DNA of 21,646 nucleotides, from positions 1 to 21,646 of the forward strand of contig CAXHZO010000027.1 in NCBI GenBank assembly GCA_964022095.1. Direction: 5' to 3'. A model generated the notes under the pieces. It was not told where the DNA came from, ran no database searches, and worked only from the letters and a program-made list of their open reading frames with translations. How positions within the stretch are numbered: position 1 is the stretch's first letter; the number at the start of each line of letters is the position of its first letter. This document shows positions 5,476 to 11,428 of the stretch, piece after piece. The translations under genes and the position numbers were made by a program. Origin of the DNA: an uncultured Arcobacteraceae bacterium (lineage in GTDB: Bacteria; Campylobacterota; Campylobacteria; Campylobacterales; Arcobacteraceae).

Positions 5476-5595
5476 ATTAAATAATATTAATCTTCATTAT
5501 TTATTAAGGAATAAAAAACTATAATCTCTGCTTAATTTGTATTTGCTGTATATAAAGTATACAAAGATATATATATTTAATAGAGAAACTTAGTA

Positions 5596-5601
5596 TATAA
5601 T
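5596..5601 (+). promoter_or_regulatory. Putative sigma70 -10 box (TATAAT) for porin 1; predicted TSS ~5607-5608
   Basis: Perfect TATAAT 84 nt upstream of the ATG at 5685. An adjacent TATACT at 5602-5607 is an alternative. Confidence 0.6.
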
Positions 5602-5606
5602 TATAC

Positions 5607-5646
5607 TGTTCTTCTAAAATTTCGAAATATATTGCGCGAATATATT
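5607..5646 (+). promoter_or_regulatory. Porin-1 5' leader element antisense to the porin-3 ribosome-binding region, followed by a hairpin with GCGCG loop
   Basis: 5607-5628 TGTTCTTCTAAAATTTCGAAAT vs 11325-11346 TGTTCTCCTAAAATTTCGAAAT (21/22 identical on the + strand, while the genes are on opposite strands). Hairpin AATATATT-GCGCG-AATATATT at 5626-5646. Confidence 0.65.
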
Positions 5647-5684: not shown

Positions 5685-6746
5685 ATGAAAAAAATTAGCT
5701 TAGTAGCTTGTGGCTTATTATTATCTTCTTCTATGGCATTTGGTGCAGATTCAATTGATGATGCATTTAAATCAGGAACAGTATCTGGAGATATCACATT
5801 ATATGGACTTCAGACTGACAGAAAAGGTGGAAAGAAAGATGTAGGTTTCTCTGCTGCAACTACTGGTTTAGCATATGAAACTGCATCATACATGGGTTTA
5901 AATGCAAAAATGGGATTCAGAGCAGGTCACGTATTTGGTAATTCAGCAGATTTTGAAAATGATGCATTAATGACTGAAGCATATGTTAAATATGCAACTG
6001 ATGGAATTGCATTATCTGTTGGTAGACAAGAGATTGATTTAGAGTGGTTAGGTGATTACAATGAGTCTGTAGTTGCTGCAATTACTGCAATTCCAAATAC
6101 AACTATTGTTTTAGGATATGTTGATAGACAAGCTGCTGCTGATGAAGATGAAATTGGTACTTTCGGTGAAATCACTGAAGATGGTGCATATGTTGCAGAT
6201 ATTAAATATTCAGGAATTGAAGGTGTTGAATTAAACCCTTACTTTTACTCTGCTGTTGATGTAGCTGATTTTTATGGTTTAAAAGCTGGTTTCTCAACTG
6301 ATACATTTGGTGTAATTGCACAATATGCAGCTTCAAGTGAAGAGACAGGACCAGATGGTTCAATTGCTAACTTTGAAATTAGTACAGGTATTGCAGATCT
6401 TTCTCTAGCAGCTGGTTATATCACAACTGATTCAGAAGGTGGTGTTGGTTCAATTGCTGCATATGGTGATAATGTAACTCCATTTGATAATGGTGATGAT
6501 AACTATGAAACTGATGCTGATACAGTATATGGTTCTGCTGAGTACTCTATTGGAAATGCAACTGCTGGTGTATTATATGGTGAAACTGAATTTGGTTCTT
6601 CTGAATCAAGTGAGTTAAATCTTTACTCTTCTTATGCATTAACAGATTCTTTATCTTTAGGATTATTATATGTTAATTATGATTTAGAAGGTTCAGATTC
6701 TTCAGATTACCAAGATTTTGCAGCTACATTAGCTTACGAATTTTAA
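5685..6746 (+). CDS. Outer-membrane porin 1 (Opr/OprD-like family), strongly acidic
   Basis: Signal peptide, then ADSIDDAFKSGTVSG, VGRQEIDLEW motif, alternating beta-strand pattern, C-terminal YEF; AAGGA RBS at 5674-5678. Confidence 0.9.
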   Translation: MKKISLVACGLLLSSSMAFGADSIDDAFKSGTVSGDITLYGLQTDRKGGKKDVGFSAATTGLAYETASYMGLNAKMGFRAGHVFGNSADFENDALMTEAYVKYATDGIALSVGRQEIDLEWLGDYNESVVAAITAIPNTTIVLGYVDRQAAADEDEIGTFGEITEDGAYVADIKYSGIEGVELNPYFYSAVDVADFYGLKAGFSTDTFGVIAQYAASSEETGPDGSIANFEISTGIADLSLAAGYITTDSEGGVGSIAAYGDNVTPFDNGDDNYETDADTVYGSAEYSIGNATAGVLYGETEFGSSESSELNLYSSYALTDSLSLGLLYVNYDLEGSDSSDYQDFAATLAYEF

Positions 6747-6800: not shown

Positions 6801-7898
6801 TTATTTAGTAGAAGTTGCTATTAACACATCTTCTATAACCTTTGTTATATCCCCATCTAAAATTGCATCTACATTTGAATACCCAATATTACTTCTAGTA
6901 TCTTTAATTTGTTGATATGGCTGTAATACATAAGATCTAATTTGATGCCCCCAACCAATTTCACTTTTTTCAATACCGTCTTTATCTGCTTGTTGTTTTT
7001 CAAGTTCTAGTTCATATAGTCTAGATTTAAGCATTTTCATTGCACTTGCTTTATTTTTGTGTTGAGATCTATCATTTTGACACTGTACAACTATTCCACT
7101 TTCTATATGTGTAATTCTAATTGCACTTTCTGTTTTATTTACATGTTGTCCCCCAGCACCACTAGCTCTGTATGTATCAATTCTAATATCTTTATCTTCT
7201 ATCTCAATATCAATATTATCATCAATTTCTGGACTTGCCATAACTGAAGCAAATGATGTGTGTCTTTTTGCATTTGAATCAAAAGGTGAAATTCTTACAA
7301 GTCTATGAATTCCATTTTCAGCTTTCATATATCCATAGGCATTTTCACCTTTAATCATAAATGATACATCTTTAATTCCTGCTTCTTCTCCTGGCTGATA
7401 ATCTAGTAGTTCTACTTTAAAATTATTTCTTTCTGCCCATCTTAAATACATTCTGTAAAGCATGCTTGCCCAGTCTTGAGATTCTGTACCACCTGCACCT
7501 GGATGAATAGAGATTATCGCATTTGAACTATCATCAGGATTACTAAGCATTACAGATATTTCAGTAGATTTGATTAAATCTTCAAGCTCGTTGGCTTCTT
7601 CATAAAGTAGTTCAAAAGTATCTTCATCTTTCTCTTCAGTTGCTAATTCATAAAGATCATTTGTTCCACTTAATGCTTCATTTGCTTTGTTGAATTTTGA
7701 GAGTTTTGATAAAATTCTATTTTTTTCAATTCCTATTTTTGTAGCATTTTCTACATCATTCCAAAAATCTTGGTCTGACTCTAACTCTTCAATCTCTTTT
7801 AGTCTAGTATTTAACCCCTCAGGTTTTAAAATACCTTCAATATTTTTTAATTTAGTATTTAATAGTTTAATTAATTCGCTATATTCGTATGCATCCAT
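6801..7898 (-). CDS. prfB: Peptide chain release factor 2
   Basis: GGQ motif ([13 protein letters not shown]), SPF anticodon-mimic tripeptide (RISPF), WGHQIRSYV. Single open frame. Confidence 0.98.
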
Positions 7899-8029: not shown

Positions 8030-9190
8030 TTAGAATTTGTAAGATAAGTAAACTCTTGATCTATAATCATAAGAGTAGTCACCACCAAATGTTGAATACA
8101 TGATTTTTGTAGATAAGTTTTTATTAAATTTATATTTTGCAGTAATATTTGTTTCAGAAGAATCATCACCTCCATCTGTTTCCCAATCTGTATAAGAAGC
8201 AGATAATCCTAAACCATTACCAAATTTATATCCTAAATCAAGTTTATATGCATCAGTTTGCGCATCATAGTTTCCAGAAGAAATTGGAGCTGCCGTAAAG
8301 ATCTCATCTGCCCCAGAACCTATTCCAGATTCAATCTCTGCACCAGAATCAATTGTAGTATATGCAGCTGCTGCTGAGAAACCTCCAAATTTACCAGATA
8401 ATTTTACACCGTATTCTTTATTTTTTGTTTCTACATTACCAGCTGCACCATTGTCAGATTGGTAAGTTTGTACTTCTAATGTAATTGGAGATAATTTATA
8501 TGCTGCTTGTGCATAAAAAATCTTTGCATCATCATCTAAAGAACCATTTTCTGGTTTAGCTTGTAAATATTGAGCTTCTAATGTTAAGTTATCAATAGAT
8601 TTATTTTTTGCATAGATTGTATATGCACCATCTCCTGCTTGATCAAATTTAGGTACATTACCGTTAAGGTCTGTTCTATTTTGATATTTATCAACATATG
8701 CTACAACTAAAGTAGTTTGAGGTAAATCAGTATTAGCTAAAACTATACCTTCAAAAGATTGTTTTAAAATTCTTGAACCAGAACCTGCTACTAATCTAGT
8801 TTTAATATATTGTCTACCAACTTTAACTGTAGTATTTTCAATGCCATATGATAAAAATGCTTGAGACATAACTGAACCTGATACGTCCATATCTTTTGCA
8901 TAGTTACCAGCTTCATCATCAATATTTCCTACATGCGCAGTTTGAAATGTAACTCCAGCTTTTAATCCATAGTATGAACCAGTTGTTAATGATAAGTTTC
9001 CACCATTTGACCAAATTGAAGATTTTGCATCTGCACCTGACTCTTTTTCTTTTTGAAAGTATAAAGATTTGATTTCACCTTTAACTTTAGCGTCTGCGAA
9101 AGCTTGCGCTAAAGAATCAGCTGATACGGTTGTTGTTAATCCAGCAACTGCTAAAGAAGCTACTAAACTTAATTTTGCGATTTTTTTCAT
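8030..9190 (-). CDS. Outer-membrane porin 2 (OprD/Opr-like family)
   Basis: Signal peptide MKKIAKLSLVA, ADSLAQAFADAKVKGEIK, KVGRQYI...QSFEG motif, C-terminal YKF; AGGAG RBS. Confidence 0.9.
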   Translation of the reverse strand: MKKIAKLSLVASLAVAGLTTTVSADSLAQAFADAKVKGEIKSLYFQKEKESGADAKSSIWSNGGNLSLTTGSYYGLKAGVTFQTAHVGNIDDEAGNYAKDMDVSGSVMSQAFLSYGIENTTVKVGRQYIKTRLVAGSGSRILKQSFEGIVLANTDLPQTTLVVAYVDKYQNRTDLNGNVPKFDQAGDGAYTIYAKNKSIDNLTLEAQYLQAKPENGSLDDDAKIFYAQAAYKLSPITLEVQTYQSDNGAAGNVETKNKEYGVKLSGKFGGFSAAAAYTTIDSGAEIESGIGSGADEIFTAAPISSGNYDAQTDAYKLDLGYKFGNGLGLSASYTDWETDGGDDSSETNITAKYKFNKNLSTKIMYSTFGGDYSYDYRSRVYLSYKF

Positions 9191-9233: not shown

Positions 9234-9267
9234 ATTTTAATGTGTTAAAGTTACTAATTGATTACAA
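9234..9267 (-). promoter_or_regulatory. Putative porin-2 promoter: 7-4-7 direct repeat, 10-nt spacer, TAAAAT -10
   Basis: Minus strand reads TTGTAAT-CAAT-TAGTAAC-TTTAACACAT-TAAAAT. Confidence 0.6.
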
Positions 9268-9283
9268 TAATTTAAGTTAAACA

Positions 9284-9353
9284 TAAAAAGGGGAAGTATA
9301 AAAATACTTCCCCTTTTAAGATTTCGAATTTTTAAGACACCAAAATTTGATGT
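9284..9353 (-). ncRNA. Candidate ~70-nt trans-acting antisense sRNA
   Basis: TATAAT at 9365-9360, then ACAUCAA-AUU-UUGGUGU 5' hairpin, a single-stranded segment complementary to the porin-3 RBS region, and a terminator hairpin with U-tract. Confidence 0.65.
9285..9317 (-). terminator. Intrinsic terminator (ends the candidate sRNA and probably the cytochrome c transcript)
   Basis: Perfect 14-bp stem AAAAGGGGAAGTAT-AAAA-ATACTTCCCCTTTT, ending in a U-run on the minus strand. Confidence 0.88.
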
Positions 9354-9359
9354 AGCGAA

Positions 9360-9393
9360 ATTATAGATAGATTTTATTACAGTTAAGTTACAA
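9360..9393 (-). promoter_or_regulatory. Putative sRNA promoter: 7-4-7 direct repeat, 10-nt spacer, TATAAT -10
   Basis: Minus strand reads TTGTAAC-TTAA-CTGTAAT-AAAATCTATC-TATAAT; same geometry as the porin-2 promoter. Confidence 0.6.
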
Positions 9394-9413: not shown

Positions 9414-10031
9414 TTATTTTAAAGACTGCAGATAGTTATATGTATCTTTCATATCTTGTTCTGATATGGCATAAGCATAAGAAGACATCTGAACCGCACT
9501 ACCTAAATCATAAGTACCATTTCTATATCCTTTTATAGAACCTTCATACTCTTCAAAAGTTTGATTAGCAATTTTGCTTGACATTCCTGGTTCTTTTAAA
9601 CCTTTTTCTCCATGGCATACTTGACATTTGTTTATATAAATATTTTTACCATTTTCTGAGCTAGCAATTTTTTCTTCTATCTTTTTTTCTTTTTTTTCTT
9701 TTTCTTTTTTAGCTTCAAGCCTTGCTAAAACTCTTTTTTCTAAGTCTTCTTGAGATATGTTAGCGTTTGTATTTACAAATGCTGTAGAAGTTGTTCCTTT
9801 TTTAAGAATATAGATATAGTTGTTATTATTTATTTTTATGTCATCAACTCTCCAACCGTCATTTTTCATATCTTTTAGTGAGTATTGTGATTTACACTCC
9901 CCACCATCTAGTGCAACTTTTTCTAAAGTTGTAAGATCTGTGTGATTTTCTTTGAAACACATAGTTGTTTGTGAAAAAGCTAGAGTTGATAGAACGATTG
10001 TTGAAAGTGATATTTTTATTAGACTATTCAT
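9414..10031 (-). CDS. Periplasmic monoheme c-type cytochrome (c553-like C-terminal domain) with an extra N-terminal domain
   Basis: Signal peptide, N-terminal domain with two Cys, K/E-rich helical linker, then GKNIYINKCQVCHG (CxxCH) and a distal Met; AAGGA RBS. Confidence 0.85.
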   Translation of the reverse strand: MNSLIKISLSTIVLSTLAFSQTTMCFKENHTDLTTLEKVALDGGECKSQYSLKDMKNDGWRVDDIKINNNNYIYILKKGTTSTAFVNTNANISQEDLEKRVLARLEAKKEKEKKEKKIEEKIASSENGKNIYINKCQVCHGEKGLKEPGMSSKIANQTFEEYEGSIKGYRNGTYDLGSAVQMSSYAYAISEQDMKDTYNYLQSLK

Positions 10032-10147: not shown

Positions 10148-11323
10148 TTAGAAAGTATATTGAACGTGGATTCTTCCTCTTTCTCCGTCATTAGAACCTT
10201 CATAATCAACTTGACCATATCTTAAGTAAGCCATGAAGTTTTTAGCTGGTTTCCAAGTTAATTGACCATATACTTCATCAGTATCATTGTCTAAACCAGT
10301 ATTAGTGTTTTCAAATGTTAAAGTATTGTAGTTTAATGCTACGTTAACACCAGACATTACATCTACATTTAAGTTAGTTTTGATTGTACTTCCGTCTTTA
10401 GTACCATTAAGTTGAGTTGCCCAACCTTGGAATGCTGCTTCTGCATCTGTATCAACAGCTACAAAACCACCTTTTTTACCAGTTTGACCATAACCAATGT
10501 TACCACCAACGATACCAGCTTTAAATTTAGAACCAACAAACCATAATTTGTTGTCTCCACTTGCACCATCAAATTCTAATTGAGTATATCTAGCATATGG
10601 AGATAGTTTTGCAACACCTGCATCAATTGAAGCTTTTGCTCCTACTGAATAAGAGTCAAATGTATCATTTACATCAATGTAAGTTGCATCTAAAGCAACA
10701 CCTGCAAACTTACTCATAGCTTGTAATACAATTAAGTTTTCTTTATTAATTTCATTAGCTGTAGCAGTAGCTAAACCTAATTTAGAAACTTGATCTCCAC
10801 CCATTAAGTTAGTTTCATTCATGTATGCTCCAACTAATGTTACAGGACCTAATGTAGTAACTGCAGCAATACCTGTACCTTCTTGAGTACCAGAAATTGT
10901 ATCATAAACATCAGTTTGTGGTACATTTAAACCTTGAGTACCTAAGATAATTGAAGTATTTGCAAATCCTGTATATGTAAAGTTGTTATATACAGTATAA
11001 ATGTCTCCACCAAAATAGTTAGTAACACCATTGTTACTTGTACCATCAGAAGTGTCAGAACCACCAAGGATAGCTCCAACGTAAGTATATGATAAGTCTT
11101 CAGTTATTTTAGAGATTAAACCTAAAGCAATTTTTGTATTGTTTTGAGTGTACTCATTTGAACCAGTGTTATTATCTCTATTTCTATCATCATATCTCAT
11201 AGTTGCGTAACCTAAGATAGATGTATTTTTAATTGCATCTTCTAATGCACCTGCAGATGCAGTTGTAGTGAATCCAGCTACAGCTACTGCTGCTACTAAA
11301 CTTAATTTTGCGATTTTTTTCAT
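10148..11323 (-). CDS. porA: Outer-membrane porin 3, Campylobacter MOMP/PorA-like major outer membrane protein
   Basis: Signal peptide KLSLVAAVAVAGF, mature start ALEDAIKNTSILGYATMRYD (compare the MOMP start LEEAIKDVDVSGVLRYRYD), C-terminal YTF, highly expressed-type codons (AAC/TAC/TTC), long leader and strong terminator. Confidence 0.8.
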   Translation of the reverse strand: MKKIAKLSLVAAVAVAGFTTTASAGALEDAIKNTSILGYATMRYDDRNRDNNTGSNEYTQNNTKIALGLISKITEDLSYTYVGAILGGSDTSDGTSNNGVTNYFGGDIYTVYNNFTYTGFANTSIILGTQGLNVPQTDVYDTISGTQEGTGIAAVTTLGPVTLVGAYMNETNLMGGDQVSKLGLATATANEINKENLIVLQAMSKFAGVALDATYIDVNDTFDSYSVGAKASIDAGVAKLSPYARYTQLEFDGASGDNKLWFVGSKFKAGIVGGNIGYGQTGKKGGFVAVDTDAEAAFQGWATQLNGTKDGSTIKTNLNVDVMSGVNVALNYNTLTFENTNTGLDNDTDEVYGQLTWKPAKNFMAYLRYGQVDYEGSNDGERGRIHVQYTF

Positions 11324-11428
11324 TTGTTCTCCTAAAATTTCGAAATCTTTATCAGTTTACCGGAGCGCGCGAACTTGTTTAAAACCATTGTTTCAAAACT
11401 CTACCGGTTTACCGTTGCGTCCATTCTA
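11324..11428 (-). promoter_or_regulatory. Porin-3 -10 box (TAGAAT, 11428-11423) and ~90-nt GC-rich structured 5' UTR
   Basis: GC-rich island in otherwise AT-rich intergenic DNA; ACCGG/CCGGU pairing; repeated CGGTAAAC; AGGAG RBS at 11333-11329. Confidence 0.6.

Follow-up and report, generated by a model that had tools for sequence, protein, structure and literature searches.

A candidate Pho-box-associated small RNA complementary to a porA-like translation start region in an uncultured Arcobacteraceae bacterium

Between a cytochrome c gene and a porin gene of an uncultured Arcobacteraceae bacterium lies a short stretch with a promoter-like box, two hairpins, and a linker complementary to the translation start region of another porin gene. 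Does this stretch constitute a small RNA gene of its own, and, if so, which signal would drive it and what would its product do? The window, i.e. the whole stretch of DNA that was analyzed, comprises 21,646 nucleotides (GenBank assembly GCA_964022095.1, contig CAXHZO010000027.1; contig C27 of genome G000) and belongs to a genome of 2.57 Mb with a G+C content of 28%. A preliminary description of this DNA had proposed a MicF-like sRNA antisense to the ribosome-binding region of the major porin.

Gene order and anatomy of the predicted sRNA

On the minus strand, the genes are arranged in the order porin 3, cytochrome c, sRNA candidate, porin 2, and prfB. Porin 3 (10148..11323, minus strand) is a porA/MOMP-like protein of 391 aa (Pfam Campylo_MOMP, E 2.5e-15) with its own predicted terminator (10120-10089, minus strand); its designation as the "major" porin is deduced from family and syntenic position. 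The cytochrome c gene (9414..10031, minus strand) lies upstream of the sRNA candidate. Its only hairpin is weak (-8.7 kcal/mol); an AT-rich hairpin, formed by a perfect 12-bp inverted repeat (9419-9392, minus strand), overlaps its stop codon, abuts the putative Pho box described below, and is not followed by a U-tract. Read-through from cytochrome c may end at the sRNA terminator, too. Porin 2 (8030..9190, minus strand, 386 aa) was assigned to Pfam Porin_4/OprD. It models as an OprD/Occ-type channel (pLDDT 79), with OccK8, OccAB4, and OccK3 as the top Foldseek matches. Comparison of porin net charges did not single out porin 2 (net charge -9) as a phosphate channel, and any substrate assigned to it would be a deduction. 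A further gene call, porin 1, is located on the plus strand (5685-6746), and prfB (6801-7898, minus strand) forms a single unbroken frame of 365 aa.

The elements of the sRNA listed in the preliminary description (TATAAT at 9365-9360, a 7-bp hairpin, an exposed linker, and a 14-bp terminator) were all recovered. The -10 box TATAAT (9360..9365, minus strand) was identified by sequence and is invariant in five of five homologue rows. The transcript would start 7 nt past this box, giving a predicted sRNA of about 70 nt (9284..9353, minus strand; folding energy -23.9 kcal/mol) with a predicted 3' end in the U-tract at about 9284-9279. Folding yielded a 5' hairpin of 7 bp including one G:U pair (9337..9353, minus strand), the 3' arm of which is able to lengthen a duplex across the spacer between the porA Shine-Dalgarno (SD) sequence and AUG. 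It is followed by an unpaired seed (9318..9337, minus strand) that aligned as antisense to the porA translation start region; the mean probability of being unpaired in this linker was 0.94. Terminator prediction revealed an intrinsic terminator with a 14-bp stem and a U-rich tail (9286..9317, minus strand). No start codon was present in any of the three frames of the predicted sRNA. A search of Rfam, as proposed in the preliminary description, gave no match in 9284-9365 at E<=5, and none of 14 related loci reached a gathering score. CsrB-type decoy RNAs carry several GGA motifs in loops, whereas the sRNA contains a single one, which is buried in the terminator stem.

Complementarity to the porA translation start region

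The seed (9337-9318) matched the plus strand at 11330-11349 in 18 of 20 positions, as had been claimed before. Alignment confirmed that one difference is G:U-compatible and the other an A-A mismatch, and that 11 Watson-Crick pairs are contiguous. The target site in the porA-like mRNA (11323..11349, minus strand) covers positions -26 to +1 relative to the start codon; it contains a palindromic core and the SD sequence. The 20-bp duplex spans -26 to -7 and covers four of the five SD bases. Via the 3' arm of the 5' hairpin, it can be extended to +1 (23 Watson-Crick pairs and one G:U of 27); this extension was used in co-folding and not used in the accessibility calculation.

At up to two mismatches, the seed occurred at only two places in the 2.57-Mb genome, namely itself and the porA site. 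When 2367 genes were ranked as targets of the linker, porA came first with -21.3 kcal/mol, followed by a gene with -19.6 kcal/mol (mean -6.6, sd 2.3). Accessibility-corrected energies were -16.1 kcal/mol for porA, -3.7 for porin 2, -3.8 for porin 1, and -6.1 for a porin on contig C5. The notion that porin 2 would largely be spared, because the core is missing from its leader, held on both counts: TTCGAA is not present there, and the predicted pairing is weak in comparison with porA with opening costs included. A site on contig C2 with a score of 19, located directly after a tRNA, has no CG core and was set aside.

Null tests put the match into perspective. None of 300 shuffled seeds reached the real score at some start region, and 8 of 400 real intergenic 20-mers did. 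The match alone is thus an event of about 2% genome-wide, and comparative evidence is needed; taken by itself, it is suggestive, not decisive. In addition, the target core ATTTCGAAAT is a palindrome, a property missed in the preliminary description. Part of the seed match is therefore also a sense match, and sense and antisense are partly confounded. The perfect palindrome ATTTCGAAAT is present in three copies in the genome, each upstream of a porin gene. An exact complement of the porA site would pair with the porin-2 leader at -21.7 kcal/mol and with itself at -9.3 kcal/mol; for the real seed the values are -7.9 and -5.5 kcal/mol. The mismatches of the seed may reflect avoidance of pairing with porin 2 and with itself. 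A fourth porin with a porA-like leader and the palindrome before its SD sequence was seen on contig C5 (91220-91270); this locus is near-identical in genome G024 of another genus, a hint of transfer.

Conservation, related cassettes, and other antisense elements

A full-length homologue with 93% identity was found in genome G001. BLAST searches with the region in 61 genomes gave full-length coverage in this genome only, the other matches being terminator or AT-rich pieces, and a 23-nt pattern searched in 154 genomes was exact in G000 and G001 only, among the matches listed. Three of four matches in metagenome contigs represented full homologues (L216, L217, and L218). The fourth was excluded, as it showed the seed letters but neither a promoter nor a terminator and no porin gene nearby. 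L216 and L217 carry the same sRNA; the alignment comprised five rows, including the window and G001. No changes were seen in the upstream repeat, the -10 box, the arms of the hairpin, or a run of 24 bases extending through the seed, whereas the terminator varies. Five of its 10 modelled pairs changed on both sides, and the covariation score exceeded those of 500/500 shuffles, calculated from few and related rows. In L216 and L217, the terminator is swapped for a different hairpin, and the upstream gene is a porin paralogue instead of cytochrome c. The unit is thus not a cytochrome c 3' UTR, which had been named beforehand as the case that would speak against an sRNA. The 5' hairpin exhibited no compensatory change and lacks support by covariation because six of its seven pairs never vary. 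Like a typical trans-acting sRNA, the unit combines a conserved promoter of its own with an intrinsic terminator. The invariance of promoter and seed, the covariation or replacement of the terminator, and the exchange of the upstream gene argue for an independent gene, as originally suggested, and we consider this very probable. In L216 (3030-3040) and L217, the terminator loop of the homologue is itself complementary to a porin SD sequence.

Among 150 genomes, a covariance model of promoter plus sRNA, an analysis also proposed in the preliminary description, matched eight, namely the two used for training, five with bare terminators, and G013, which belongs to another genus (E 1.2e-4). Five of the six new matches, i.e. 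terminators only, were rejected as sRNA homologues; the sixth revealed a new full cassette. In G013, a phytase-like gene is followed by the box, a -10 box, a different 5' hairpin, the seed, a terminator, a second box, and a porin gene. Its seed matches the three-U variant of its own porA site at 17 of 19 positions. The terminator loop adds nine G-C pairs with a GC block of the G013-type porA leader and scores -23.6 on leaders of its own type versus -20.6 or weaker on those of other lineages. The seed alone is weak, its own leader ranking 5-6 among 17.

When the box, the -10 box, and TTCGAA were combined into a pattern and searched in 184 genomes, seven matched and the reversed control gave none. 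Three of the seven proved to be gene starts (two pstC-type and one other ORF) and were dropped. Full cassettes were therewith present in four of 184 genomes (G000, G001, G013, and G191). G191 represents a third genus; its cassette comprises box, hairpin, seed, and terminator, and a second box follows at the end of the contig. The G191 seed favors leaders with the flank of its own lineage, which make up six of the seven best among 17, its own leader being seventh (-20.1); the window's seed scored -23.6 on its own leader type and -9.1 on that of G191. Flanks are thus lineage-matched in both G191 and G013, with own-leader ranks of 7 and 5-6 of 17, and G:U-keeping versus mirror transitions stood at 7:3, a bias that was not significant (p = 0.17). 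As judged from sequence, each of the two out-of-sample seeds appears to fit its own porA leader variant, the fit being clear in one case and weak in the other. The occurrence of cassettes with flank-matched seeds in several genera indicates a patchy (4/184) but recurrent element whose seed appears to be adjusted to the lineage.

The target core has a far wider distribution. Of 12 syntenic loci that contain a porA-like gene, 11 have kept it; it is invariant in 17/17 aligned leaders (mostly found through the core itself) and is conserved family-wide, including many genomes in which no antisense element was detected. The porA 5' leader (11321-11422, minus strand) forms a conserved RNA structure; in the 17 leaders, six of 13 predicted pairs show compensatory changes. 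It contains an invariant unpaired GCGCG block plus a variable hairpin and has no match in Rfam. Intergenic copies of the palindrome without an anti-SD flank were present in relatives at 13 distinct loci among 110 inspected. Perfect copies of this kind were noted at L095, L096, and L144, one of them preceding an OmpR-type regulator gene. Sense sites resembling that of porA also occur before genes for other exported-looking proteins in four genomes (L155 in G002, L162 in G012, L237 in G105, and L296 in G176), which are possible targets.

A second antisense element to the porA site was found in the window itself at the start of the predicted porin-1 mRNA (5608..5640, plus strand). It consists of a 21-nt block plus a GCGCG block. 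In a scan of 33,414 intergenic windows, it was the best trans match to the porA start region (-37 kcal/mol). This leader is kept in G001, has a counterpart in the leader of a sister porin in G002, and also pairs with the porin-2 leader (-13.6 kcal/mol). The porin-1 promoter (5547-5640, plus strand) carries the palindrome TGTATA-N5-TATACA, which occurs at 19 intergenic sites, some of them before nitrogen-assimilation genes; the sites include those of glnA, two amtB genes, a urea-type binding protein, ureD, and a nitrite transporter. Further anti-porA elements are situated 3' of porin genes (L110, L136, and L219). At L219 (1340-1460, plus strand; genome G082), the antisense stretch of about 27 nt lies between two hairpins that are near-identical and have pyrimidine-rich loops resembling anti-SD sequence. 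In four genomes representing three genera (L119, L146, L222, and L309), a response-regulator gene is followed by a conserved anti-porA element of two blocks enclosed in a stem. In 11 element-target pairs outside genus g12, the own leader ranked first in five, second or third in five, and fourth in one, of 13 leaders. A family of stand-alone sRNA candidates from g12 (L165, L229, L232, L234, and L289), about 85 nt long with -10 box, hairpin, TTCGAA linker, and terminator, was rejected as support: the own porA leader ranked 13, 9, 2, 12, and 9 of 13, and the sense fit equaled the antisense fit. A poorly chosen pattern for antisense copies family-wide matched three of 154 genomes, two of the matches being porA leaders, and another pattern search gave mostly chance matches or porA leaders.

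We tentatively suggest, at somewhat less than even odds, that the palindrome at the porA ribosome-binding site is a hub for several independently arisen antisense RNAs, each tied to a different starvation regulon and to its own replacement porin. Its members might then include the Pho-box sRNA, the nitrogen-box porin-1 mRNA (in trans, through its 5' end), the elements 3' of porin genes, and the response-regulator element. If so, the outer membrane would be governed by an Hfq-free, nutrient-selective switchboard, where even the leader of an mRNA would silence a different porin.

Conservation of the site in genomes without a detected antisense element suggests a further conserved reader. Rather than pairing with porA mRNA, the sRNA could be a decoy that mimics the palindromic porA site and titrates whatever recognizes it, be it an RNA-binding factor or an as yet undetected sRNA common to the family. 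The palindromic core and a sense identity of 19/36 are consistent with such mimicry. Over the same 36 nt, the antisense fit is better (25 Watson-Crick pairs plus two G:U), and it runs into the anti-SD flank, which is not expected in a sense mimic. Moreover, seeds track lineage-specific flanks in antisense orientation, and the other elements pair in two blocks of variable spacing. We regard a decoy as unlikely.

Quite unlikely, too, is a relic, i.e. a duplicated porin-2 promoter with a terminator that only insulates porin 2 from cytochrome c read-through, the seed match being due to chance or drift. The promoters of the sRNA and of porin 2 share their architecture and a few leader bases, the hairpin of cytochrome c is weak, and an equally good match to some start region was obtained with 2% of random intergenic 20-mers. 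Against this, the terminator diverges but the seed does not change, the unit is retained where a different gene lies upstream, and the cassette pattern yielded seven matches (four of them full cassettes) compared with none in the reversed control.

We strongly doubt that ATTTCGAAAT acts as a DNA operator read by a dimeric transcription factor common to porin loci, with the short transcript being incidental. Its three perfect copies before porin genes fit this explanation, as do the 13 loci without an anti-SD flank, one of them before an OmpR-type regulator. An operator would have little to control inside a gene-less, terminated unit; the sRNA and porin-1 copies extend into anti-SD sequence on the transcribed strand; and the palindrome is broken in the sRNA copy, at a position that is identical in G191. 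Decoy and operator both draw on the conservation of the core in genomes where no antisense element was detected.

A putative phosphate signal, the proposed mechanism, and known systems

Upstream of the sRNA, a putative Pho box of the form GTAAY-N6-GTAAY (9376..9391, minus strand), not seen in the preliminary description, is invariant in all homologues. It constitutes an 11-bp direct repeat located 10 nt upstream of the -10 box. Pattern searches revealed a second putative box (9265-9250) with a -10 box (9239-9234) in the predicted porin-2 promoter (9234..9265, minus strand), present in the window, G001, L216, and L218. This architecture was found at six sites in the genome, i.e. before the sRNA, porin 2, pstS, pstC, and galE and, reversed, before a PHO4 transporter gene (the latter four at G000:C5 13875 and 12658, C6 1922, and C21 10282; loci L239, L241, and L240). 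The spacing to the -10 box is the same before the sRNA, porin 2, pstS, and pstC. The genome possesses a pstSCAB-phoU-phoB-phoR cluster with the pst genes at its head; PstC, PstA, and PstB scored over the cut-off, and PstS, PhoU, PhoB, and PhoR were best matches under it. In 154 genomes of the family, the box pattern matched 317 times compared with 23 for the reversed control. Among 30 loci inspected, one per genome and mostly from one genus, 17 boxes preceded pstC, one pstS, one phoH, one phoX, and five other identified genes; five had no assigned gene. As in known Pho regulons, two 11-bp direct-repeat units thus lie upstream of a -10 box, and the same box precedes pst/pho genes. According to the accessible part of a published account, the Pho box is defined by its 11-bp period, and the core in Escherichia coli is CTGTCAT, from which the Arcobacteraceae box differs (PMC4415409). 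The repeat is a putative PhoB site and phosphate the likely signal for the sRNA. Reading of the box by a different OmpR-family regulator, with an otherwise real, porA-pairing sRNA, is very improbable: the deviation from the E. coli core and the 10 of 30 box loci before genes without a plain phosphate role or without an assignable gene would accommodate it, and the position of the box at or beside pstS, pstC, phoX, phoH, the PHO4 transporter, and the phytase-like gene, together with the 11-bp period that defines Pho box geometry in the text available to us (PMC4415409), opposes it.

The reading that we prefer, with a probability of roughly two-thirds, is that of a PhoB-induced, Hfq-independent sRNA with a MicF-like mode of action that would lower PorA while porin 2 is induced. 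It is based on sequence anatomy, conservation, complementarity, and motif context. Under low phosphate, a PhoB-type regulator would bind to the two tandem Pho boxes. Transcription from the upstream box would produce the 70-nt sRNA, ending at its own terminator, and the downstream box would induce porin 2, the modelled OprD/Occ-type channel. The open 20-nt seed would pair with porA mRNA from -26 to -7 without Hfq, and the duplex would hide the SD sequence, block ribosome loading, and so repress porA. Long RNA duplexes are established substrates for cleavage by RNase III; the porA duplex would probably attract double-strand cleavage, with RNase III as a guess. PorA would go down while porin 2 goes up, and imperfect complementarity would spare the co-induced porin 2. 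The Hfq model TIGR02383 was not found in G000 (99.99% complete); as a control, it matched in five of 14 genomes. If the reading is true, MicF logic arose anew in a phylum lacking Hfq and in response to another signal, and a Pho box is defined for Arcobacteraceae. The locus would further offer a small, directly testable model of outer-membrane remodeling by chaperone-free sRNAs with long seeds in bacteria that abound in coastal waters and sewage, when nutrients are limiting.

A term search of the A. butzleri genome paper gave no mention of small RNA, hfq, or phoB. A transcriptome paper on Epsilonproteobacteria, in its available portion, reports absence of Hfq and poor conservation of ncRNAs. 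Searches of the open-access literature, to the extent that its texts were accessible, gave no report of the sRNA at 9284-9353, of any Arcobacteraceae sRNA, of an sRNA against a major porin of Campylobacterota, or of a PhoB-driven porin-switch sRNA.

Several known systems resemble parts of the proposed one; all published accounts are cited here from the sections accessible to us. PhoE is a phosphate-starvation porin. VCA1008 is another porin of this kind and belongs to the Pho regulon (PMC13157583). Porin 2 is likewise a predicted Pho-regulon porin, but it models as an OprD/Occ-type channel and not as a PhoE-type trimeric porin. CjNC140 of Campylobacter jejuni is an sRNA of about 70 nt directly upstream of porA; deletion of CjNC140 left PorA unaltered (PMC10470494), which counts against the preferred reading. 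The sRNA described here shares its size, a porA neighbor, and the order Campylobacterales, but its position is 2 kb downstream of porA, and it has complementarity to the porA ribosome-binding site. NikS/HPnc4160 of Helicobacter pylori acts in an Hfq-less organism, is repressed by NikR, and represses mRNA leaders including those of outer-membrane proteins (PMC8322730). Common to both are the phylum Campylobacterota, the lack of Hfq, and a nutrient regulator, here a predicted one. NikS has many targets and short seeds, in contrast to the one dominant predicted target, the 20-bp duplex, and the putatively co-induced replacement porin of the present case. PhoS of Bacillus is an sRNA induced by the phosphate two-component system (PMC11522486). 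It derives from the phoPR 3' UTR of a Gram-positive organism and has no porin target; that it is unrelated is indicated only by the absence of an Rfam match.

The closest parallel is MicF, and the label "MicF-like" holds for the mode of action only; membership in the MicF family is contradicted by the lack of an Rfam match and of a detectable Hfq. MicF lies beside ompC in divergent orientation, is controlled by OmpR, and forms a duplex of about 20 bp. It represses the translation of ompF in E. coli under OmpR control (PMC13501541). Like MicF, the sRNA shows long complementarity to a porin translation start (18/20; rank 1 of 2367), and the shared promoter architecture and the pairing energy of -3.7 kcal/mol suggest, by sequence only, co-regulation with a spared alternative porin. 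Both appear to be under two-component control, predicted in the present case, and both are encoded at one porin locus and pair, by prediction in the case of the sRNA, with the translation start of another porin. Unlike MicF, the sRNA lies in tandem upstream of its partner porin on the same strand, with its own copy of a box common to pst genes, and it combines a predicted phosphate/PhoB signal with an internal seed and a palindromic target core, without similarity in sequence or in Rfam.
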